44,710 nucleotides of DNA from Escherichia phage vB-Eco-KMB36. The position numbers and the translations under genes were made by a program. Shown piece after piece: positions 2,748-42,101 of this stretch. The notes under the pieces were generated by a model, which was not told the DNA's origin, made no database searches, and saw only the letters and a list, made by a program, of their open reading frames with translations. The DNA lies in the sequence record OR525703.1; one strand, written 5' to 3'. Every line of letters begins with the position of its first letter. Position 1 is the first letter of the stretch.

Positions 2748-2783
2748 GTTCACATATAGCCCCGAAAGGGGCTTTCTTATAGT

Positions 2784-4754
2784 ATGCTATTAACTTTAGC
2801 GCCACAGGGTTCATCTATGAGCTTACTTACATCTCTAATCAGCCACCAGATATGGCTGCAACGCACTGCATCCGGTGAGGTGAAAGACCTCGCGCCGTTC
2901 ATTAAGGAGATGCGGGACGAAATAAAACGGCAGGTGCTGTTATTCGGCGACGACGGGCGAAGCACCGCGCGACTGAATAAACTGTTACGCGACCTTGAAG
3001 AAGCACTTACCGCGCTTACCGGTGACTGGCGGACAAAGCTGACGGAAGACCTTAAGGAGCTTGCAGCGTATGAGGCTGAGTGGAATGTGAAGACACTCAC
3101 GGCTAACGTTAATGCGGAATTTGTTACCCCGACCGCTGAACAGGTGTGGTCCGCCGCCGAGTTTCAGCCATTATCATTAAGCGACAAGCCAGTTGACTTC
3201 ACTAAGCTGATGTCGGGCTGGGGGGAAACAGAAGTCGCGCGCCTTGTAACAGGCGTTAAGATGGGCTTTGTACAAGGCCAGACAACACGGCAGATTGTTA
3301 AGAATGTTGTTGGTGCTGGTGGTTTGGCGGACATTTCAGAACGTAACGCGGCTACTGTAATCCGCACCGCGCTGTCTCATGTATCCAACGAGGCCCGTAA
3401 CGAGACGTACCGCCAGAACGACGACATCATCGAGAAGTACGAGTGGGTGTCGACGCTGGACAGCCGTACCAGTACAACGTGTTTCACGGCTGAAACAGAA
3501 TTAGCGCCCATCGCGGGGATGGACGCGGTAATGCGCGGACTCTATTCAGGAAAAATCCTTACCATCGAACTTTCCAACGGCGAGAAGTTCAGTGGCACCC
3601 CGAAACACCCTGTACTCACGCAATACGGATGGACTCCGCTTGATGAACTCGACCCAACTAAGCATGTCTTGTATACCACTGTTGACAAAGTGACTGTGCT
3701 CGAAACAGTGAAGAACATAAACATGCCAGCCAGAGCGGATTATATTTTTAATACGCTCGCTGATTTCCCCATCAGGAAAATGGTAAGCACGAGTCCCGCG
3801 GCAACAGATTTCTATGGCGATGGAGTGGGACTCAATGGCAAAATCGACATTGTACGGGCCGATTGCAAACTGCGGAACTACGTCCACGCCAGCGGAATTA
3901 AACAATTCAAAAGCGAGGGTTTCAGTCTTATTCATAGCGCCGCTTTGCTGTCGGACGATAGCTCTGGCGATTTTCTCCTCCGGGGTGAATGTCCTGTGAG
4001 TGTGCCCGCGCTTAGCGAGGCCAAGTGTTTTGACCATAGAATAGAAAACTGTTTTGCTTACTTGGGTCCTTCTTATGCACTCAATAGGCGGGACGCCGGA
4101 CTCGAACAATTCTATAGCCCTTTTTTGATTCAAAATGGTGTCGTTAGAAACCCAACCACGGGGTCGATCATGCATGAGTCCGAGCTTCTTGAGAAATGTT
4201 GTTACCGTGGTGGTAGTGACGCCGTAATTCTTGGCTATGATGCTGGCGGGAGTGCCATCTCGGTACAAAGAACAAATATCATCCGCATAAGCGTCGAGTT
4301 TAGAACGTGCCATGTTTATACCCTCTCTAGTAGTCAAGGATATTATACAGCAGGTAGTGCGATAGTCAAGAATTGCAGGGCCAGAGACGGAATGACGTGG
4401 GAAATCGGTAAAGGACCGATGCCCCCGGCCCATTTTGGGTGCAGAAGTACTACCGCACCAGTAATCAGTTCCGAGTTCGACTTCCTCGATAAAGGCGCGA
4501 AACGCGCAGCTAAGGGCGCAGAAGGTGGTACCCAGGTAAGCGCAGACACCACCTATTACGAGTTCCTTAAACAACAACCGGCATGGTTTCAGGATGAAGC
4601 ATTAGGGCCGGTTCGCGGTAAGATTTTCCGTAACAGCGGTATATCGCCGGAAGAGTTTCGCGTAATATCTGTAGATGGTTTCGGGAATCCGCTGACGCTT
4701 AAGCAGATGGCGGAACTCGATAAACGTGTTGCTGATTATCTGAAAGAGGATTAA
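2784..4754 (+). CDS. head morphogenesis protein (SPP1 gp7 / Mu F-like) containing an in-frame intein
   Basis: Extein motifs DSRTSTT...CRARDGMTWEIGKGPMPPAHFGCRS match the Mu F/gp7 signature once residues 233-530 are removed; alternative start ATG 2817. Confidence 0.7.
   Translation: MLLTLAPQGSSMSLLTSLISHQIWLQRTASGEVKDLAPFIKEMRDEIKRQVLLFGDDGRSTARLNKLLRDLEEALTALTGDWRTKLTEDLKELAAYEAEWNVKTLTANVNAEFVTPTAEQVWSAAEFQPLSLSDKPVDFTKLMSGWGETEVARLVTGVKMGFVQGQTTRQIVKNVVGAGGLADISERNAATVIRTALSHVSNEARNETYRQNDDIIEKYEWVSTLDSRTSTTCFTAETELAPIAGMDAVMRGLYSGKILTIELSNGEKFSGTPKHPVLTQYGWTPLDELDPTKHVLYTTVDKVTVLETVKNINMPARADYIFNTLADFPIRKMVSTSPAATDFYGDGVGLNGKIDIVRADCKLRNYVHASGIKQFKSEGFSLIHSAALLSDDSSGDFLLRGECPVSVPALSEAKCFDHRIENCFAYLGPSYALNRRDAGLEQFYSPFLIQNGVVRNPTTGSIMHESELLEKCCYRGGSDAVILGYDAGGSAISVQRTNIIRISVEFRTCHVYTLSSSQGYYTAGSAIVKNCRARDGMTWEIGKGPMPPAHFGCRSTTAPVISSEFDFLDKGAKRAAKGAEGGTQVSADTTYYEFLKQQPAWFQDEALGPVRGKIFRNSGISPEEFRVISVDGFGNPLTLKQMAELDKRVADYLKED
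3480..4373 (+). mobile_element. intein (Hint domain, about 298 aa) in head morphogenesis protein
   Basis: Starts CFTAETEL, block B GTPKHPVLTQYGW, C-terminal VYTLSSSQGYYTAGSAIVKN followed by Cys+1; penultimate Lys instead of His. Confidence 0.6.
3546..4313 (-). CDS. putative homing endonuclease (tandem HTH + Vsr/DUF559-like nuclease) encoded antisense inside the intein
   Basis: 256-aa ORF from ATG at 4313 with upstream GAGAGGG; HTH-like TPASIIAKNYGVTTTTVTTFLKK and VSKTVFYSMVKTLGL; nuclease-like PYNVDFAIESHSIAIEI and ERIKNIIRSGWHVYVL; lies entirely within intein 3480..4373. Confidence 0.45.
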   Translation of the reverse strand: MARSKLDAYADDICSLYRDGTPASIIAKNYGVTTTTVTTFLKKLGLMHDRPRGWVSNDTILNQKRAIELFESGVPPIECIRRTQVSKTVFYSMVKTLGLAKRGHTHRTFTPEEKIARAIVRQQSGAMNKTETLAFELFNSAGVDVVPQFAIGPYNVDFAIESHSIAIEICCRGTRAYHFPDGEISERIKNIIRSGWHVYVLHCFEHSHFVNSGIQDMLSWVEFIKRSPSVLREYRVFRGATELLAVGKFDGKDFS

Positions 4755-5215: not shown

Positions 5216-5218
5216 TAA

Positions 5219-5241
5219 GAGGCCCCGAAAGGGGCTTTTTT
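5219..5241 (+). terminator. rho-independent terminator
   Basis: GGCCCCGAAAGGGGC hairpin followed by TTTTTT. Confidence 0.7.
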
Positions 5242-5305
5242 AATGTCTGTGATTATTCCAGTTATTCCGCTCAATTGTAAATGTTGGAATAAACTATTCG
5301 AATAG

Positions 5306-5334
5306 TTGACTTTTCACTAAAAATGTGCTAAGCT
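5306..5334 (+). promoter_or_regulatory. sigma70-like promoter (copy 1 of repeated element)
   Basis: TTGACT, 17-nt spacer, TGcTAAGCT extended -10; CTATTCGAATAG palindrome abuts the -35. Confidence 0.5.
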
Positions 5335-5340
5335 CCACCT

Positions 5341-5541
5341 GAGCTTGTGAAGTATGAACAAGCGACCGCGGCGCGGGCAGGTAACGGAGCGGGACGTAAG
5401 TCCTGAGTGTAGTTACGCTGACGCGTTCGGAAGGGCCATACTCTATTGCTTGTGTAAAAAGTAACTGGTTTACTGAGATTACGCCGTTTCTATGTTTAAA
5501 TGATAAGGACTAGCGCCCCGCTTTATGGCGGGGCTTTACTT
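5341..5541 (+). ncRNA. candidate small RNA of about 200 nt, paralog A
   Basis: No ORF; bounded by the promoter and a GCCCCG/CGGGGC hairpin plus U-tract at 5513..5541; conserved 5-prime hairpin GCTTGT..ACAAGC and box TTCGGAAGGGCCATA shared with the copy at 36997..37210. Confidence 0.35.
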
Positions 5542-5558: not shown

Positions 5559-5945
5559 ATGAATCTTAAAGCAACTGTCGTAGCGGGCGCATGTTTCATA
5601 ATCCTGGCTTACGCACACGGCATCTACCAGTATCGCATCGGCTGGAACGAAGGCCGGGCGAATCTCGTTTCGCAGCAACAGCAGAAAGCACAGGCTGAGT
5701 TAGCGAAGAAAACACAACGGCAGCAGCAGGATGAATCAAAGGCCGCGGCAGCTGACAACGAAGGCAAGACGAAATCAGAGGTGATTACCCGTGAAGTCGT
5801 TAAGTACATTAAAACGCCTGGTCGCAGCGTGTGCACTTTCGACGATGCTCGCGTCCTGCTCAAGTCCCGCGCCGTCGCAAACGCCAATTCCATCCCCGGA
5901 TACGACGATGATGCAGCCTCCGTGCAAACTGGCGCCGCCAAGTAG
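5559..5945 (+). CDS. Rz-like i-spanin
   Basis: N-terminal transmembrane segment VVAGACFIILAYA then Q/A/K-rich coiled-coil region; Rz1-like ORF embedded in +1 frame. Confidence 0.55.
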   Translation: MNLKATVVAGACFIILAYAHGIYQYRIGWNEGRANLVSQQQQKAQAELAKKTQRQQQDESKAAAADNEGKTKSEVITREVVKYIKTPGRSVCTFDDARVLLKSRAVANANSIPGYDDDAASVQTGAAK

Positions 5946-12385: not shown

Positions 12386-12390
12386 GGAAA

Positions 12391-12416
12391 AGGCCCCGAA
12401 AGGGGCCTTACTATTT
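12391..12416. terminator. terminator hairpin shared by convergent genes
   Basis: AGGCCCCGAAAGGGGCCT hairpin between the major tail gene end and the minus-strand HNH gene end. Confidence 0.6.
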
Positions 12417-12899
12417 ACCGTGGTTCTCGTGGAACCCTAAATCTCTTTCAGCAACTCTCCTCGCGGCAACTGCATCTAGTAGCGTTTTAAAGCATCCGAT
12501 GTGTGTTTTTACGTTATTGTTGAATATCTGTGCGTACCACAACCTTTCTTTCGCGTTCCAGTAAACCCCGGTTACTCCTGATTTATTATTACGCTGTTTT
12601 GACATATTTTTATGGTTTTCCGCATTGGACTTTTTAGCTAAGTTAAGCGGTCTATTGTTTATTCGGTTATGGTCTAGATGGTCTATTTGATCTGACGAGG
12701 TTAGCTTATCGTTAGGATTGTTTAAGTCCCAAGCTATACGGTGCGCCGCGTGCCATTTACCTCTGAAAAATATCCTTCTATATCCGTCTCGCTGTACAGT
12801 ACCTGCCTCCTCTCCAGCCTTAGCCCTCCCGGAACGTGTTACTCTGTTAAATATCCTTCCTGAAATTAAGTCGTATATGAAAAATTCATTCCAGTCCAT
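12411..12899 (-). CDS. HNH homing endonuclease with AP2 DNA-binding domain
   Basis: IDHLDHNRINNRPLNL HNH core and AP2-like SGVTGVYWNAKERLWYAQI; start taken at the ATG 6 nt after AGGAG. Confidence 0.75.
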   Translation of the reverse strand: MDWNEFFIYDLISGRIFNRVTRSGRAKAGEEAGTVQRDGYRRIFFRGKWHAAHRIAWDLNNPNDKLTSSDQIDHLDHNRINNRPLNLAKKSNAENHKNMSKQRNNKSGVTGVYWNAKERLWYAQIFNNNVKTHIGCFKTLLDAVAARRVAERDLGFHENHGK

Positions 12900-12918
12900 A
12901 ATCATCTCCTGTTGCGAT

Positions 12919-12943
12919 AAGGCCCCGAAAGGGGCCTTTTTCT
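12919..12943 (+). terminator. terminator-like hairpin
   Basis: AAGGCCCCGAAAGGGGCC followed by TTTTTCT on the plus strand. Confidence 0.5.
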
Positions 12944-13173
12944 CACTCATCAATATTACTCCTGTACTCCCGTAACTTCTCCAGACTTTCAATTGCTTCA
13001 GCTAAGTCTGTTCCGGTGTCCTTGTGGCCACGCAAGCCCATACACAACAGCTTCTTCAATGCGTGTTGCAACGCCGGGTCGCGGATGTCGAAGGCACGCA
13101 GCACATCGTAAACGTCTACCGTCATAGTGCTGCCGTGGGTATTTGTCATTGTGCGGTTGTATTTATTTGTCAC
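12943..13173 (-). CDS. hypothetical protein
   Basis: 76-aa ORF, coupled to neighbours. Confidence 0.4.
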   Translation of the reverse strand: MTNKYNRTMTNTHGSTMTVDVYDVLRAFDIRDPALQHALKKLLCMGLRGHKDTGTDLAEAIESLEKLREYRSNIDE

Positions 13174-14898: not shown

Positions 14899-15315
14899 AT
14901 GAAACTTTCTGATTTTTATTACGAAGCTGAGGCAGAAAAAGGCGCCCGTATGCCAATACCACTGAAAGACGGCACCGATTCAGGGGAGTGGCTGAACGTT
15001 GTTTCACCGGAGGCAGACGTTGCCGTTAAAGCTATGAGGGCGTTTACACTTGCGTACCGCGCGGCATTAGGTAAATTGAAACCGCTTCGTGATAAATGTG
15101 AGGAACTGAAAGATTTCTCGGAATACAATATTAAGATGGAAGACGCCGCGACGGACCTTAACCGCCAGTTAGCACTTGAACTGGTTAACGGTTGGAGTCT
15201 CGACGATGAATTTAATAAAGAGAACCTGAACACTCTTTTCTCACAATATAAACGCCTCGCTGAACACGTTGTTGTTTTCCACAACGAACAGCTTCACCAA
15301 TTGCAGGAAAAGTAG
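14899..15315 (+). CDS. tail assembly chaperone (G-like)
   Basis: 138-aa ORF immediately upstream of tape measure; ends GAA AAG TAG. Confidence 0.6.
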   Translation: MKLSDFYYEAEAEKGARMPIPLKDGTDSGEWLNVVSPEADVAVKAMRAFTLAYRAALGKLKPLRDKCEELKDFSEYNIKMEDAATDLNRQLALELVNGWSLDDEFNKENLNTLFSQYKRLAEHVVVFHNEQLHQLQEK

Positions 15316-15320
15316 ACGCG

Positions 15321-15680
15321 TTGCTCCAGTTTGCCCGTTGGAACTTCATAACCCGCCACAAACGGCGGGAGTTTGACAGTATTGCCGACGGGCATAAAGC
15401 TGCGCTAATTGCTATGGGGGTTATGCAAGATGCGCCGGAAGCAACGCAGGATACCGGGCCAGAATGCCCCCCTGAACTACTAACCACCTTCGAGAAGTAC
15501 AGGGAAATCAAATTCACACGCCGAGTGGATGACGACGGCATCAAGATGTACCCGCGCGAACAGTTACGATGGTCGGATTTAGTGGCGTACAGCACCGTTT
15601 CAGGCCAGAATATAGGCATGTTTGAATCCGACATCATCATGAGCTTAGACGCTATTTTCGAGGGTAGAAACGATGGCTGA
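15321..15680 (+). CDS. tail assembly chaperone GT extension (likely -1 frameshift product)
   Basis: -1 frame is open from 15264 to 15680 and overlaps tape measure start; putative slip site at GGAAAAG 15306..15312. Confidence 0.5.
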   Translation: MLQFARWNFITRHKRREFDSIADGHKAALIAMGVMQDAPEATQDTGPECPPELLTTFEKYREIKFTRRVDDDGIKMYPREQLRWSDLVAYSTVSGQNIGMFESDIIMSLDAIFEGRNDG

Positions 15681-19386: not shown

Positions 19387-21932
19387 TCCTGCACTACACG
19401 CGAAACGCTGATGGCGCTTTCGACCGTACAAAACACGTCGGGATGCCGATGGAGTTTGTCATTAACCGTATCCCGGACGGCGTGCCGGTGCGCGTCTACC
19501 TCGGCGAGATTGGCGATGATACTGATGTTACAGACGACTTCGACGCGCTTAAAGACGAAGACGCTGTGTACCACATTATAGAGGGTGCGGGTAGCGGGGC
19601 ACTTGGTGCCGTTAGTAAGGTGTTCGGTTTTATCCTTAAGCCAATTGCCAAGTTGTTTGGTCTGAACATGTCCGCAAACGCCAACTACACGGCGACTAAC
19701 AACCAGACAACGTCACCGAATAACAGCCTTACCGACCGCTCAAACAAACCACGCCCTTACGAGCGCTCCTATGACATCTGCGGGACTGTGCAGACAATCC
19801 CTAATGACCTGATGCAGACGTATAAGGCGTTCAACTCCACTGGTGCTTTGCTGGAGTATTCGTACTATGACGCAGGGCGCGGACATCTGCATATTGAGGC
19901 TGATGGTGTCACAGAGGGCGACACCCTGATAAGCGACATCACAGGTTCCTCTGTTGCCATATATGCACCGTATACGTCACCGAACAACACCACATCGCCG
20001 CAACTACAAATCGGCGACGTCATTGACCAGAAACTCTATGTGACATACTCCAACGACGACGTTGACGGTATTGTACTGAAAGCGCCGAACGACATCGGGG
20101 CCAACCCAAGCGCCGGTGGCACAGCTAAACGTATTTCAACCACAGGCTACATCTACGACCCGTCGGGCGACTCTGCTTTTTCTGAGTTTCTTAGCGTCGG
20201 TGATGTCGCGGTGCTTAGCAACTTCGATGTTGCTGACGTCACTAACCTGAACGGCTCGTTTGAGGTTTTATACGTTGACGACTTTGAGGTTCGGTTGTAC
20301 GTCGGGGATATAGGTAACTGGGGCAACCTTAATAGCGGAGAGACTTACGCACTTACAGAGCGTTCTGACACGTTTATCGGCCCGAGCAACACCTATGACG
20401 TATCTCTTACGGACTGGTATTACATGGTGCGCGGAGAGGTTGACCGGGTACTTGCTAACGTTGCCGGGCAGAACGGCCTCTACAAATACGACGGCGGCTA
20501 TAACCGCACCAGTGTAACCGTAGAACTCCAGTACCAGATGATTGATTCCCAACGCAACCCGTTGAGCGACATTTACACGGTACAGGCTACAATTACGGGC
20601 AACAATACTGATTACGTCGGTACGTCTATCTACGGGCAATTGCCTACTGCGTCGCGTTTCCGCGCCCGCATGCGCCGTATAACTAATTTCGACAAGGACT
20701 ACAACGGTACAGTAAGCGACGAGATAACGTTCATCAACCTGTACGGTCAGTCACTGGACACTACCCCGCATTACGGCAACCGAACTACAGTACATTGCGC
20801 CCGTAAACAGACACCACGCGCCGCCAGTATCGATAACCCTGAACTGCGCATGATTGCTACAGAGATGTGCTACAAATACCTCGGCAATGGGGTATTCAAC
20901 ACCGTAATGACACCTAACACTCAGGCGGTGCAATCACTAATTCGACTGGCCCGCGACCCGGCGGTAGGTAACTTAGAACTGACAACCGCAAACATGGACA
21001 AGTTACTTGCCGTGCAGGAAGAGATTGAATCCTATTTTGGCAGCGAATTAGCGGGACAATTCTGCTACACGTTCGACGACTACGACACCACGATGCAGGA
21101 CATCGTTCAGACTATAGCCGAAGCCGTATTCTGTACTGCGTACCGCAAAGGTGCAGATATTATGCTGCGATTCGACCGTCCGGTTGCGGGGCCTGAAATG
21201 GTGTTCACCCACCGCAGTAAGACGACCGGTACGGAGAAATGGACACGCACGTTCAATGATTCGACAACCTACGATAGCCTGTCGTTCTCGTACATCGACC
21301 CGGATACTAACGTACAGGAAACGATTTATATCCCGGAAGAACTCGGCGCAAACACCGAGGAATACGAATCGAAGGGCGTGCGCAACTATCAGCAGGCGTA
21401 CTGGCTGGCGTGGCGTCGCTATCAGCGCAACGCGTTAAGTAAAGTTGTCGTAGAGTTCGAAGCTACGGAAGAGGGTGCGCTCGCTACGCCCGGCGGCGTA
21501 ATCAGCGTGGTTAAAGGCTCCCGCATCGCGCCGCAGGATGGTTATGTTGTCGCCGTTAATGGGCTTACGCTTACGCTGTCGCAGCCGGTTACGTTTACTC
21601 CGGGGGATGACCACTCCATCATTCTTAAGAAGCGAGACGGTTCGGTGCAGAGTATCTCTGTTATCAAAGGAAGCCATGACCGCGAGGTGATTATGCTCTC
21701 TGCGCCGGAGGAAGCCATCTACACAGGGAATAGTGCGCTAAAAACTGAGTTTTCATTCGGCAACGAAGCAAGGCATAATGCACAGAAGATAGTTGTTTCT
21801 TCAATCGACCCGGGCGACGACCGCACGGTCAAGATTACAGGCTACAACTATGACGACGGATTCTATAAATACGACGGCGTCGCTCCATACGGTAGCGGTT
21901 TCTCCGACGGATTCAGCAATGGTTTTAATTAA
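19377..21932 (+). CDS. tail tip / host specificity protein (J-like)
   Basis: 851-aa ORF in tail tip block. Confidence 0.55.
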   Translation: MAIILHYTRNADGAFDRTKHVGMPMEFVINRIPDGVPVRVYLGEIGDDTDVTDDFDALKDEDAVYHIIEGAGSGALGAVSKVFGFILKPIAKLFGLNMSANANYTATNNQTTSPNNSLTDRSNKPRPYERSYDICGTVQTIPNDLMQTYKAFNSTGALLEYSYYDAGRGHLHIEADGVTEGDTLISDITGSSVAIYAPYTSPNNTTSPQLQIGDVIDQKLYVTYSNDDVDGIVLKAPNDIGANPSAGGTAKRISTTGYIYDPSGDSAFSEFLSVGDVAVLSNFDVADVTNLNGSFEVLYVDDFEVRLYVGDIGNWGNLNSGETYALTERSDTFIGPSNTYDVSLTDWYYMVRGEVDRVLANVAGQNGLYKYDGGYNRTSVTVELQYQMIDSQRNPLSDIYTVQATITGNNTDYVGTSIYGQLPTASRFRARMRRITNFDKDYNGTVSDEITFINLYGQSLDTTPHYGNRTTVHCARKQTPRAASIDNPELRMIATEMCYKYLGNGVFNTVMTPNTQAVQSLIRLARDPAVGNLELTTANMDKLLAVQEEIESYFGSELAGQFCYTFDDYDTTMQDIVQTIAEAVFCTAYRKGADIMLRFDRPVAGPEMVFTHRSKTTGTEKWTRTFNDSTTYDSLSFSYIDPDTNVQETIYIPEELGANTEEYESKGVRNYQQAYWLAWRRYQRNALSKVVVEFEATEEGALATPGGVISVVKGSRIAPQDGYVVAVNGLTLTLSQPVTFTPGDDHSIILKKRDGSVQSISVIKGSHDREVIMLSAPEEAIYTGNSALKTEFSFGNEARHNAQKIVVSSIDPGDDRTVKITGYNYDDGFYKYDGVAPYGSGFSDGFSNGFN

Positions 21933-24281: not shown

Positions 24282-24288
24282 ATAAACA

Positions 24289-24312
24289 AGGCCCCTAACG
24301 GGGCCTTTTTCT
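24289..24312 (+). terminator. rho-independent terminator
   Basis: AGGCCCCTAACGGGGCCT followed by TTTTCT. Confidence 0.7.
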
Positions 24313-24449
24313 TACTCTTCTGATAACTTCTCCAGTACAAACGCCAGTTGCGCATTAGCGGCATCTCTTTGCTGGCGTAGTCGCAGAACCTCTTCTTCCA
24401 GTTCCTTGATACGTTTTTGCAATGCCGGAATCGGGGCTATGATGTTCAT
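24312..24449 (-). CDS. hypothetical small coiled-coil protein
   Basis: 45-codon ORF MNIIAPIPALQKRIKELEEEVLRLRQQ...; last gene of the minus-strand block. Confidence 0.3.
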   Translation of the reverse strand: MNIIAPIPALQKRIKELEEEVLRLRQQRDAANAQLAFVLEKLSEE

Positions 24450-26286: not shown

Positions 26287-26574
26287 TTAACTATAATAGC
26301 TCGCTATTAGGTCGTCAACCTGTTTAAACGAACCAACGACAAAAACATTTGCACCACGTTTACGCATCCGCTCGTGCTCTCGTAACTGGTGCGGGTCCGG
26401 CTTCGTGTTTTCGTCTTTCTTAACCTCGACGAACCAGATGATGCCACCAGGGAGAATTACCAGCAGGTCAGGAGCTCCCACTCTATTTTCGTACGACAAT
26501 TTGCGTACAAGGCCCCCCATGGCCTCGAATCGCTCTTTTGCGTATTTCTGTACGCGGCCCTCTTTAGTCGCCAT
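26287..26574 (-). CDS. VRR-NUC-like nuclease
   Basis: PDLLVILPGG...WFVEVK pattern. Confidence 0.55.
   Translation of the reverse strand: MATKEGRVQKYAKERFEAMGGLVRKLSYENRVGAPDLLVILPGGIIWFVEVKKDENTKPDPHQLREHERMRKRGANVFVVGSFKQVDDLIASYYS
26290..26318 (-). promoter_or_regulatory. sigma70-like promoter with AATAG-N4-CTATT palindrome
   Basis: Minus strand reads TTGACG, 17 nt, TATAGT; palindrome at 26295..26308. Confidence 0.5.
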
Positions 26575-31507: not shown

Positions 31508-31562
31508 TTCTCGATTCCTCAGTTTTCAGTTTACTCCGGGAGCTGCCCGGCCAGTGATTAGA

Positions 31563-31591
31563 ACTATAATAGCTAACTATTCAGGTGTCAA
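31563..31591 (-). promoter_or_regulatory. sigma70-like promoter with AATAG-N4-CTATT palindrome
   Basis: Minus strand reads TTGACA, 17 nt, TATAGT; palindrome at 31568..31581. Confidence 0.55.
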
Positions 31592-33650: not shown

Positions 33651-33681
33651 TTGTTTCTCTCCTCTCGTTTGGTATGGGCTA

Positions 33682-33710
33682 ACTATAATAGCGAACTATT
33701 CACATGTCAA
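33682..33710 (-). promoter_or_regulatory. sigma70-like promoter with AATAG-N4-CTATT palindrome
   Basis: Minus strand reads TTGACA, 17 nt, TATAGT; palindrome at 33687..33700. Confidence 0.55.
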
Positions 33711-36961: not shown

Positions 36962-36990
36962 TTGACTTTTCACTAAAAATGTGCTAAGCT
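36962..36990 (+). promoter_or_regulatory. sigma70-like promoter (copy 2 of repeated element)
   Basis: TTGACT, 17 nt, TGcTAAGCT; identical to the promoter at 5306..5334. Confidence 0.5.
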
Positions 36991-36996
36991 CGTCCT

Positions 36997-37210
36997 GAGC
37001 TTGTGAAGTATGAACAAGCGACCGCGGTGCGCGGCAGGCGAAACGAGCACGTCTAGACGTGTGGAGTGAGGCTCGCTGGCGCATTCGGAAGGGCCATAGT
37101 CTATTGTAATTCCCGCCTAGGTATCTAAGTTACTGATTTGCCGTAGGTTAGAACCGCAAGCTCACTCACTCACTCTTGGTGCCTTCGGCACCACGTTCGT
37201 TTCGTTTCGC
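36997..37210 (+). ncRNA. candidate small RNA of about 210 nt, paralog B
   Basis: No ORF; shares promoter, 5-prime hairpin and TTCGGAAGGGCCATA box with 5341..5541; ends at GGTGCC-TTC-GGCACC hairpin plus U-rich tract. Confidence 0.35.
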
Positions 37211-37251: not shown

Positions 37252-37280
37252 TTGCACACCCCAATATAATAGGATACTAT
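37252..37280 (+). promoter_or_regulatory. sigma70-like promoter with AATAG-N4-CTATT palindrome
   Basis: TTGCAC, 17 nt, TACTAT; palindrome at 37268..37281. Confidence 0.5.
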
Positions 37281-37305
37281 TCACTTATCGAAACGAGACA
37301 GAGGA

Positions 37306-37506
37306 ATGATGGTTATGTTTAAGAAGGGCCAGTTGGTTAAATGCGCCGACGGTGAACACGGCATAATTGAATTAAAATCTAATGTATTTCCCGGTGAGTA
37401 CGTAGTGACCGTGCAAAAGGTGAGAGGGGTAAATTCACAAATATACGTAGAAGAGGAGAACTTAAAACTCATTGGCAACAATTTTAAATTCAAAGGGGCG
37501 AAGTGA
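37306..37506 (+). CDS. hypothetical protein
   Basis: 66-aa ORF downstream of promoter; start may be ATG 37309 or 37315. Confidence 0.45.
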   Translation: MMVMFKKGQLVKCADGEHGIIELKSNVFPGEYVVTVQKVRGVNSQIYVEEENLKLIGNNFKFKGAK

Positions 37507-39911: not shown

Positions 39912-39975
39912 TGATTGACGCGTATATCTATTGGAGTGGGGGTAGCTTTTAATTTTACCCTTATACCTGTGATTC

Positions 39976-40012
39976 TTTGGGCACTTTGGTGTTTGGGCAC
40001 TTTGGTGTTTGG
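39976..40012. repeat. tandem direct repeats of a 16-bp unit
   Basis: TTTGGGCACTTTGGTG x2 plus a partial third copy. Confidence 0.6.
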
Positions 40013-40216
40013 TACTGTTCCCCGCCGTAGAAGCTGCTAGCATGGCGCGGTACTACCGAAGAATCGGAAAAGTTCACGGGATTAAAGTGCACAGCTGGTT
40101 CAGGCTTTTCCGCGCTAACTACGAATTGTTTGGGCGCACGTTCACAGCACAGCGGTGCTCTTACGGCTATTGGGAAGGAGTAGGGCGATGGGAAGTATTT
40201 CCTGCGGAGGCCGAAA

Positions 40217-40510
40217 ATGAGCCTCGCAACTGATATCCTGAAACGAAGCGGCCTTGCGCCGCTGTCACCGAGAGCTAAAACACAGATATACAAGCGTCGC
40301 CGTAACGCGCTGTACCCGGAGATTCAGGCCAGACGTAAAGCTGTCCGCGCCTGCGGGTTCCAGAACGGGAAGGCCTTGAACCTCGGTGAGTTTAAAACGC
40401 AGGAACGTGCGGCTATAGCTAATCGGCTATTTAATTACTGGAAATCGCTGGGATACGATGATATTCCGACGAAACCACAGAGACGACAATACATCTGGAG
40501 ACATAAATGA
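40217..40510 (+). CDS. hypothetical basic protein
   Basis: 97-aa ORF. Confidence 0.45.
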   Translation: MSLATDILKRSGLAPLSPRAKTQIYKRRRNALYPEIQARRKAVRACGFQNGKALNLGEFKTQERAAIANRLFNYWKSLGYDDIPTKPQRRQYIWRHK

Positions 40511-40947
40511 CTACTATCGCGTTTGATGGAAAGACAATGGCCTGTGATACCCGTGTTGTGTGCGGGAGTAACTGTTACAACACAGACACTAAGATTTATG
40601 AGAATGATTTTGTGGTTGTCGGGGTGGCTGGTGACGCGGGGGTTGGAATCCTTTTAGTGAAGGACAATAGTATTTTAGTGCCTAAGCACTACGACTTCGA
40701 TTTCGAAGCCCTGGTGTTCGTGAAAGACACAGAAAAGGTGTACAAAGTCGCGTTTTATAAATCATGGGATTGCGCACTAAGTTCGGTTATTCCGGTTGTT
40801 GATAGCTTTGCCGCTGTTGGCTCCGGCGCGCCTTATGCCCTAGCGGCTATGGAATGTGAGTATTCGGCACATGGTGGCGTAGCCGTCGCTTCAAAGTTCG
40901 ATACCAACACAGGCGGCAAGATTATTACCAAACAACTATTAAGATAA
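40507..40947 (+). CDS. HslV/proteasome beta-like Ntn-hydrolase
   Basis: MTTIAFDG N-terminus, VVVGVAGDAG and AAVGSGAPYALAAM align with HslV TTIVSV, VIAGFAGG and AIGSGGPYAQAA. Confidence 0.6.
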   Translation: MTTIAFDGKTMACDTRVVCGSNCYNTDTKIYENDFVVVGVAGDAGVGILLVKDNSILVPKHYDFDFEALVFVKDTEKVYKVAFYKSWDCALSSVIPVVDSFAAVGSGAPYALAAMECEYSAHGGVAVASKFDTNTGGKIITKQLLR

Positions 40948-41006
40948 TTCCTACCCGTGGTATCCTCCAGTTACTGCATACTTAATACGCACCTGGAGGA
41001 TTCATC

Positions 41007-41258
41007 TTGGATAAATTTACTGAAACAGTGACGGGGTGGCTTCTCGCTGCCGCGCTAGCCGGAGGGGTTATCGGACTACGGCAACATAAGTCTGTTATTT
41101 CTGGCCCCATCGACGGCTTCTGCTTTATCGCAACTGGCTTCACCTGCGCCGTATTCGGCGCACCTCTAGCGGCTCAATGGTTCGGCATTACCGGGGAGCG
41201 TGAAATCGCTCGGCGCACCTCTAGCGGCTCAATGGTTCGGCATTACCGGGGAGCGTGA
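41007..41258 (+). CDS. holin-like membrane protein, truncated by a 55-bp tandem duplication
   Basis: Two hydrophobic helices then frameshifted tail RRTSSGSMVRHYRGA; removing one repeat copy restores a 102-aa three-helix protein ending at 41370. Confidence 0.5.
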   Translation: MDKFTETVTGWLLAAALAGGVIGLRQHKSVISGPIDGFCFIATGFTCAVFGAPLAAQWFGITGEREIARRTSSGSMVRHYRGA

Positions 41259-41265
41259 AATCGCT
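41156..41265. repeat. perfect 55-bp tandem duplication
   Basis: CGGCGCACCTCTAGCGGCTCAATGGTTCGGCATTACCGGGGAGCGTGAAATCGCT occurs twice back to back. Confidence 0.85.
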
Positions 41266-41362
41266 GGTCTGGGTTTCATCATCGCTATTCTCTGGATGCC
41301 TATCTATTCTCGCCTTTCTGGCATCGTCGCCGGAGAATACATCACACGTCGAGGAGGCCCGG

Positions 41363-41635
41363 ATGAATGAGCTATTCTGGCTCGGCGGTATGCTGGCAAT
41401 CGGAGGCACATCGCTGTTTAATGTGTATCATCCCGGCGTTGACGACGGATTATTTGGCCGTGTGCTCTATATCCTGACTGCTATCGTCTGCGCCGCCGGG
41501 TGTATCCACCTGTTACAGGGCAGCATGTCGCCAACGCTGCCCGAGACGTTAATCACATTAGTTGCGCTGCGCCAGATTCGTCAGGCGTGGCTGTCGTATG
41601 GAGGACATAAGCGTGTCTCGAAACATTTCAGATAA
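41363..41635 (+). CDS. holin/antiholin-like two-helix membrane protein
   Basis: MNELFWLGGMLAIGGTSLF and ILTAIVCAAGCIHLL hydrophobic helices; upstream of endolysin. Confidence 0.5.
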   Translation: MNELFWLGGMLAIGGTSLFNVYHPGVDDGLFGRVLYILTAIVCAAGCIHLLQGSMSPTLPETLITLVALRQIRQAWLSYGGHKRVSKHFR

Positions 41636-42101
41636 TGGACTGCATTTCACCGCCGCGTTCGAGGGGTTCCGTGGTACTGCGTATCGTGCTACGCCGAATG
41701 AGAAATACCTGACTATTGGGTACGGAAGCTATGGCCCTCATGTGTATGAAGGACAGAAGATTACGAAGGGGCAAGGCCTCCTGTTACTGAATCGCGATAT
41801 GGCTAAGGCCGTAGCTGCGGTTGATGCCGCCGCGCACCATTCACTGACACAGGCACAGTTCGACGCTGTGTGTGACCTGGTCTATAACGCTGGCGCTGGC
41901 GTGATCGCCGCTACTACTGGCACGGGCAAGGCGCTGCGTTCCGGGGATATTGCGACGCTGCGGGCTAAGCTGGCGATGTTCATCAACCAGAACGGCAAAC
42001 CGCTACTTGGCCTGCGTCGCCGTACTGCGGGCCGTCTGGCGCTGTTCGACGGTAAACCGTGGCAGGAGGCTGAGGCTATTGGGCGCGCGGTGAAAGGTTG
42101 A
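41598..42101 (+). CDS. endolysin (T4 lysozyme-like, GH24)
   Basis: FEGFRGTAYRATPNEKYLTIGYG signature; alternative GTG start 41613 has a GGAGG RBS. Confidence 0.75.
   Translation: MEDISVSRNISDNGLHFTAAFEGFRGTAYRATPNEKYLTIGYGSYGPHVYEGQKITKGQGLLLLNRDMAKAVAAVDAAAHHSLTQAQFDAVCDLVYNAGAGVIAATTGTGKALRSGDIATLRAKLAMFINQNGKPLLGLRRRTAGRLALFDGKPWQEAEAIGRAVKG

Follow-up and report, generated by a model that had tools for sequence, protein, structure and literature searches.

A perfect 55-bp tandem duplication that truncates the first holin gene in the record of phage vB-Eco-KMB36 is very probably an untrimmed contig-end overlap

The genome record of Escherichia phage vB-Eco-KMB36 (KMB36; OR525703), a Kagunavirus, contains a perfect 55-bp tandem duplication that frameshifts and truncates a holin-like gene. 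Does the phage carry this duplication, or does only its record? A preliminary description of the sequence had offered two readings, a recent mutation, possibly a lysis-timing variant, and an assembly artefact. The whole stretch of DNA that was analysed, 44,710 nucleotides in length, is referred to here as the window. The duplication lies in the first gene of an ordinary holin-holin-endolysin cassette, made up of the following features.

40995..40999, plus strand: Shine-Dalgarno sequence GGAGG, read from the sequence, 7 nt 5' of the holin TTG start
41007..41258, plus strand: truncated ORF as deposited, WQN07601.1 'putative holin', TTG start, 83 aa
41007..41370, plus strand: full extent of the first holin gene, TTG start; without the extra 55 bases it has 309 nt and 102 codons
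41156..41210, unstranded: first copy of the 55-base unit, comprising codons 51-68 (GAPLAAQWFGITGEREIA) of the holin gene and the last base of codon 50
41211..41265, unstranded: copy 2 of the 55-base unit, presumed redundant, 100% identical to copy 1
41363..41635, plus strand: second holin-like gene, 90 aa, phrog_2508 'holin' (E = 8.9e-33)
41613..42101, plus strand: endolysin gene, GTG start, 162 aa, Phage_lysozyme PF00959 (E = 3.1e-26)
5559..5945, plus strand: Rz-like spanin gene, phrog_2536 (E = 5e-55), far from the holin-endolysin cassette

The segments 41156-41210 and 41211-41265 are identical by reading of the sequence, by Tandem Repeats Finder and by direct string comparison, which bears out the coordinates first given for the duplication. 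Tandem Repeats Finder calls a repeat of period 55 with 2.0 copies at 41155-41265, with 100% matches and no indels. The period-55 identity extends 1 nt past two exact units, and the border ambiguity, or microhomology, consists of a single T. The unit opens with CGGCGCACC and closes with ATCGCT. At the junction between the copies GAAATCGCT is followed directly by CGGCGCACC, and the 30-mer across this junction is GAGCGTGAAATCGCTCGGCGCACCTCTAGC. A perfect tandem repeat of 55 bases cannot have arisen by chance. A tandem-duplication scan of the window found just one other perfect tandem repeat, of 16 bp, at 39976-40012. That repeat, TTTGGGCACTTTGGTG in 2.3 copies, lies in a gap of 305 bp (39912-40216) without a convincing gene, between a 66-aa ORF and a 97-aa phrog_9632 gene; fFiEco02, the nearest relative at this gap, has contiguous genes there.

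As 55 is not divisible by three, the second copy shifts the frame, and the recorded product is an 83-aa 'putative holin'. The ORF that begins at TTG 41007 terminates at TGA 41256-41258 and its final 15 residues, with the tail RRTSSGSMVRHYRGA, are out of frame. Removal of one copy yields a 102-aa product with the C-terminus ...GLGFIIAILWMPIYSRLSGIVAGEYITRRGGPDE, and the outcome is the same whether copy 1 or copy 2 is deleted. The restored stop codon, 41368-41370, overlaps the ATG of the next gene at 41363, the sequence of the overlap being ATGAATGA. Thus the structural claims of the preliminary description, namely the frameshift with a stop at 41258, the 102-aa protein with a third helix after deletion of one copy, and the coupled overlap with the ATG at 41363, are all upheld by the string edit and the Kyte-Doolittle profile.

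The restored protein has three predicted hydrophobic helices and a charged tail that ends in RRGGPDE. The third hydrophobic segment, with residues 70-83 at its centre, appears in the Kyte-Doolittle profile of the restored form only. Against the PHROG family phrog_2359 (holin) the restored protein scores E = 3e-29, with residues 1-95 aligned to profile positions 4-97 of 110. A Pfam search found no family for either holin-like protein, and PHROGs alone recognises both. The features of the restored gene are those of a holin: it is small, has at least two transmembrane helices and a charged C-terminus, and is located near an endolysin gene. On this profile match the restored product is classed as a member of phrog_2359 and a putative holin, the 'class II holin-like' protein of K1G-type annotations. 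Without the duplication the gene is an unremarkable representative of the Kagunavirus first-holin family, and the 83-aa WQN07601.1 is probably an artefactual product.

The neighbouring genes complete the cassette. The second holin-like protein has two hydrophobic segments. The endolysin gene starts 243 nt 3' of the restored stop codon, and its product lacks an N-terminal hydrophobic signal; the enzyme would therefore need a holin for access to the cell wall. In relatives the trio is labelled 'class II holin-like' (102-103 aa), 'class I holin-like' (90 aa) and endolysin. Directly 5' of the cassette, at 40507-40947, lies a gene for a 146-aa homologue of the HslV-family peptidases (phrog_1040, with a weak Pfam Proteasome match), which is found in Bas73 and G AB-2017 and is missing from fFiEco02 and KMB35.

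The lysis region of KMB36 matches 134 phage records at ~88-91% identity, mostly Kagunavirus phages of Escherichia. Complete E. coli genomes gave no match to it, and a prophage copy as the source of the region was rejected on these zero matches. An 80-base query across the copy junction hit 78 phage records, where the matches listed consist of two overlapping pieces covering only ~55 bases. The duplication was found neither among the listed matches of these 78 records nor in 40 IMG/VR loci or two Logan contigs. In a protein-level search at least 80% of the 102-aa holin was covered in 118 phage records. An ungapped match of 306 nt was present in 25 of the 26 records listed among these, the exception being PQ474795, which has a 1-nt insertion. 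All 40 of the IMG/VR loci match holin residues 1-102. The two Logan contigs encode an identical second holin and come from different phages, with 90-96% DNA identity to KMB36; their first holin has 102 aa and a single copy of the unit.

When the gene was re-extracted from relatives, every one of the 46 examples had 102 codons and a TTG start. Copy 1 (41156-41210) aligns gap-free with the relatives' single copy and is, judged by this alignment, genuine sequence. Helix 3 is at least 90% conserved in the 46 re-extracted relatives, and Dhillonvirus homologues, which are 45-52% identical, keep the helix 3 region too. Across the genus, codons 69-102 show 418 synonymous versus 125 non-synonymous differences, counts that indicate purifying selection on the displaced C-terminal part. 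Since the relatives have a single copy and 102 codons, and the C-terminal part is conserved, the 83-aa form is not native to the family. A comparison with related phages had been proposed at the outset as a check; it turned up neither the duplication nor the 83-aa form in any of those examined. The 83-aa sequence has an exact match in NCBI only, on no Logan or ENA contig. The restored 102-aa sequence has no exact match in a collection of 15 billion proteins, nor in any Logan run assembly.

Two kinds of variation at this locus were seen in the relatives. In phiEc4 (MZ576218) and ST20 (MF153391) the first holin gene is intact, with 102 codons and a TTG start, but is unannotated (locus ~553-860), evidently overlooked by gene callers owing to the TTG start. 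In PQ474795 (vB_Eco_AMO_3701M, locus ~760) and OR061069 (M01, locus 601-906) there is one extra G in the G run that follows REIAG, and the resulting +1 frameshift gives a holin product of 101 aa without helix 3. The break lies 1-2 codons from the KMB36 junction. The two phages are ~90% identical at the holin locus and each record is 45,294 bp long. Their frameshift may be true variation within a lineage, or it may stem from a sequencing or reference-guided error.

A de Bruijn assembler turns a genome that closes circularly into a linear contig in which the last k bases are repeated at both ends. If such a contig is circularised and re-opened elsewhere without trimming, the two end copies come to adjoin inside the record. 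The value 55 belongs to the default k list of SPAdes. In the default multi-cell mode, however, k reaches 127 on untrimmed 2x300 reads. An assembly that stopped at 55 must therefore have been made in single-cell mode, with an explicit list of k values, under the default of a wrapper, or from reads that had been shortened.

Base 3 of the window aligns to base 1 of the K1G reference NC_027993, which is the start codon of the large terminase, and the KMB36 record was therefore rotated. The published pipeline agrees with this: SPAdes 3.10.1 was used to assemble the KMB genomes, which next underwent 'genome zeroing' on a reference phage. The stated sequencing coverage is >300x, and KMB36 appears as OR525703 in Table 1 of that study (PMC11162368). 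A contig-end overlap of 55 bp from SPAdes is on record for phage 132 (PMC8483715), and a phage annotation guide warns of duplicated regions in contigs (PMC8785237). The KMB36 repeat is perfect over this same length, and we infer from it that k was 55 in KMB36 as well.

These observations suggest the following course of events. With a final k of 55, SPAdes would have converted the circularly closing KMB36 genome into a linear contig U + X + U with identical 55-base ends. The contig would then have been taken as a circle and 'zeroed' on K1G, that is, re-opened 2 nt 5' of the large-terminase start codon, with the overlap left untrimmed. Re-opening would have placed the two U copies head to tail inside the record, in the order X2 + U + U + X1. 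The contig ends would have been the 55-mer now at 41156-41210 and the redundant copy would have become 41211-41265, the original contig break having fallen by chance within the first holin gene. The real KMB36 genome is probably 44,655 bp long, as compared with the 44,710 bp recorded. It most likely encodes a 102-aa three-helix holin, coupled to the 90-aa holin-like protein and a soluble, lysozyme-type endolysin.

A fault of the pipeline could leave the same mark in other genomes from the study. Seven sibling genomes were searched for perfect tandem duplications, the period being set at 15-400 or 20-400 bp; five of them gave the following results.

KMB35 (Kagunavirus, OR525704), 41411-41520: perfect 55-bp tandem duplication
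KMB41 (Murrayvirus, OR539216), 21484-21594: perfect 55-bp tandem duplication
KMB47 (Vectrevirus, OR424385), 41879-41988: perfect 55-bp tandem duplication
KMB43 (Krischvirus, OR525698), 103271-103380 and 141005-141114: two perfect 55-bp tandem duplications
KMB46 (Warwickvirus, OR525699), 3371-3470: perfect 50-bp tandem duplication

The same scan found no perfect tandem duplication in KMB14 (Vectrevirus, OR424384) or KMB25 (Tlsvirus, OR424386). Duplications of exactly 55 bp thus occur in four of the seven siblings, as five events at arbitrary positions in four unrelated genera; with the window included, there are six such events in five of eight genomes. The border microhomology is 0-1 nt in all six, which fits a join made in silico and not slippage between short repeats. 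The sibling 55-bp duplications are the same artefact as the one in KMB36. Since KMB14 and KMB25 are clean and the KMB46 unit is 50 bp, the pipeline was not uniform.

Several of these duplications also disrupt genes. When one copy is removed from KMB47, ORFs of 57 aa and 556 aa merge into a single 570-aa ORF, which is called tail-fibre-like because its homology to the KMB14 tail-fibre protein is limited to the N-terminal ~120 residues. In KMB41 the same edit turns two overlapping annotated CDSs into one 134-aa ORF, and in KMB46 a 226-aa ORF emerges in a 770-bp stretch without an annotated gene. The KMB46 duplication is probably a related joining artefact. In KMB43 a 'DNA helicase' is split into two annotated CDSs, and the two events in this genome fit two contigs that were joined and closed with the 55-base graph overlaps left in.

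Control DNA gave a different picture. In ~640 kb of Kagunavirus DNA that came from metagenomes or other laboratories there were only four perfect tandem repeats of at least 20 bp. With periods of 24, 24/36, 24 and 60, each divisible by three, these leave the reading frame unchanged. None of the perfect tandem repeats in the ~640 kb had a period of 55.

An untrimmed k = 55 contig-end overlap, with a true genome that lacks the second copy and has an intact first holin, is thus very probably what the record shows. The chief alternative is a genuine and very recent tandem duplication in the KMB36 stock that cuts the first holin short after helix 2, with lysis through the second holin-like protein and perhaps altered timing. 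The copies are identical, as would be expected of a recent event, and both a second holin-like gene and an intact endolysin gene lie downstream. Since that second gene follows, plaque formation might be possible even with a defective first holin, and viability alone does not discriminate against a mutation. The frameshifts of M01 and AMO_3701M, in the same loop, hint that loss of helix 3 might be tolerated. A real duplication would, together with these frameshifts, suggest that helix 3 is dispensable in the Kagunavirus first holin or that lysis timing is tuned by its loss. However, four further genomes that went through this pipeline have duplications of exactly this length, five in all and at unrelated sites, while period 55 is absent from the 640 kb of control DNA; slippage would need border repeats of several bases, and the KMB36 borders share 1 nt. 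None of the >150 relatives checked has the duplication among the listed matches, and downstream of it the gene is wholly intact and conserved. A genuine duplication is accordingly very improbable. Of the two original readings the artefact is preferred over the mutation because the genome went through SPAdes and rotation and because four of seven siblings have 55-bp duplications at unrelated sites. The idea of a lysis-timing variant gained no support.

A technical cause of another kind could also produce a false duplication: a library fragment may have been chimeric, pieces may have been mis-joined by hand in Geneious, or the consensus may have taken up a minority variant. The 50-bp unit of KMB46 and the double duplication of KMB43 do show that pieces were joined manually. 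But random chimeras or hand joins would differ in length, and six events of exactly 55 point to a single systematic source, the assembler k. A minority variant, moreover, would not normally win the consensus at >300x coverage, and such causes are highly improbable. The last alternative takes the split as functional, with the 83-aa N-terminal fragment acting in a holin/antiholin pair together with either a C-terminal fragment or a second holin extended from GTG 41255. The C-terminal fragment corresponds to the following ORF.

41200..41370, plus strand: mechanical ORF of 56 aa, GTG start, the displaced holin C-terminal part including helix 3

These ORFs exist mechanically, the 56-aa one solely through the duplication, and the GTGA overlap at 41255-41258 (GTG 41255, TGA 41256-41258) looks like a coupling signal. 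Yet both GTG codons have GGGGAG at a distance of 1 nt on their 5' side, too short a spacing for a ribosome-binding site, and initiation at GTG 41200 is unlikely for this reason. The 126-aa frame from GTG 41255 also stays open when there is a single copy and so does not depend on the duplication; none of the homologues shows such an organisation, and the exact 56-aa sequence is absent from the 15-billion-protein collection. Re-initiation products from GTG 41200 or 41255 were rejected on these grounds, and the probability of a functional split is close to nil.

Phage 132 (PMC8483715) resembles KMB36 in that a SPAdes assembly was re-opened on a reference and a perfect 55-bp repeat equalled an assembler k. 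In phage 132, however, the overlap was trimmed before re-opening, whereas in KMB36 it was evidently kept and a gene was broken. The restored KMB36 product is 78-98% identical to the Kagunavirus phrog_2359 'class II holin-like' proteins, with the same TTG start and length, and the gene precedes the 90-aa holin-like gene and the lysozyme gene in the same order; the cut 83-aa form as deposited occurs in no family member. Natural repeats of Kagunavirus, such as the in-frame 60-bp repeat of fFiEco02 (locus 627-752), are likewise perfect, head-to-tail and within coding sequence. The periods found in them are multiples of three, which keep the frame, whereas the 55-bp unit of KMB36 destroys it. M01 and AMO_3701M share with KMB36 a holin without helix 3, but there one G too many in a G run is responsible, not a duplication, and the product has 101 aa. 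The feature in the KMB36 record is a known kind of assembly artefact and not a biological one.

The result brings no new biology; its value lies in data quality and database curation. OR525703, a public 'complete genome', is probably 55 bp too long and has added a false 83-aa holin, WQN07601.1, to the databases. The signature of an untrimmed overlap is present in at least four more records, OR525704, OR539216, OR424385 and OR525698 (twice), which, like OR525703, need 55-bp corrections. A related 50-bp signature is probably present in OR525699, and across several of these cases genes were split or left unannotated. When a phage genome has been re-opened, a perfect tandem duplication whose length matches one of the usual assembler k values (55, 77, 99 or 127) can serve as a flag for the artefact. 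It would let scans and curators separate artefacts from true frameshifts before a pseudogene or a lysis variant is proposed.

Other features of the KMB36 genome were noted in the course of the analysis. An element of ~145 nt occurs twice, at 5306-5448 and 36962-37106, both times intergenic, in blocks that are 96% and 91% identical. It begins with a sigma-70-like promoter, TTGACT-17 nt-TAAGCT, and continues as a conserved non-coding leader. This leader contains several hairpins, and compensatory changes are seen in one of them. The Rz-like spanin gene lies 3' of one copy, and the rightward genes that start at 37306 lie 3' of the other; a related Logan contig has both copies as well (3289-3431 and 15256-15398). 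Rfam reported nothing in the window at the gathering score and has no family for the element, which may be a shared leader or a small RNA.

A 30-nt motif, AACTATAATAGCnnACTATTCA..., occurs four times in the region of the leftward replication genes (26289-26318, 31562-31591, 33681-33710 and 37262-37291). It holds a TATAAT box and an AATAG/CTATT inverted repeat and is promoter- or operator-like. Terminator-like hairpins of near-identical sequence, GGCCCCGAAAGGGGCC with a T run after it, are located at the ends of gene blocks (2754-2791, 5217-5254, 12388-12425, 12917-12954 and 24288-24320). The minor head protein ORF, 2784-4754, encodes 656 aa versus ~350 aa in relatives (KMB35 CDS 2759-3835; 347 aa in a Logan contig), which agrees with the ~900-bp intein reported by the KMB authors (PMC11162368).
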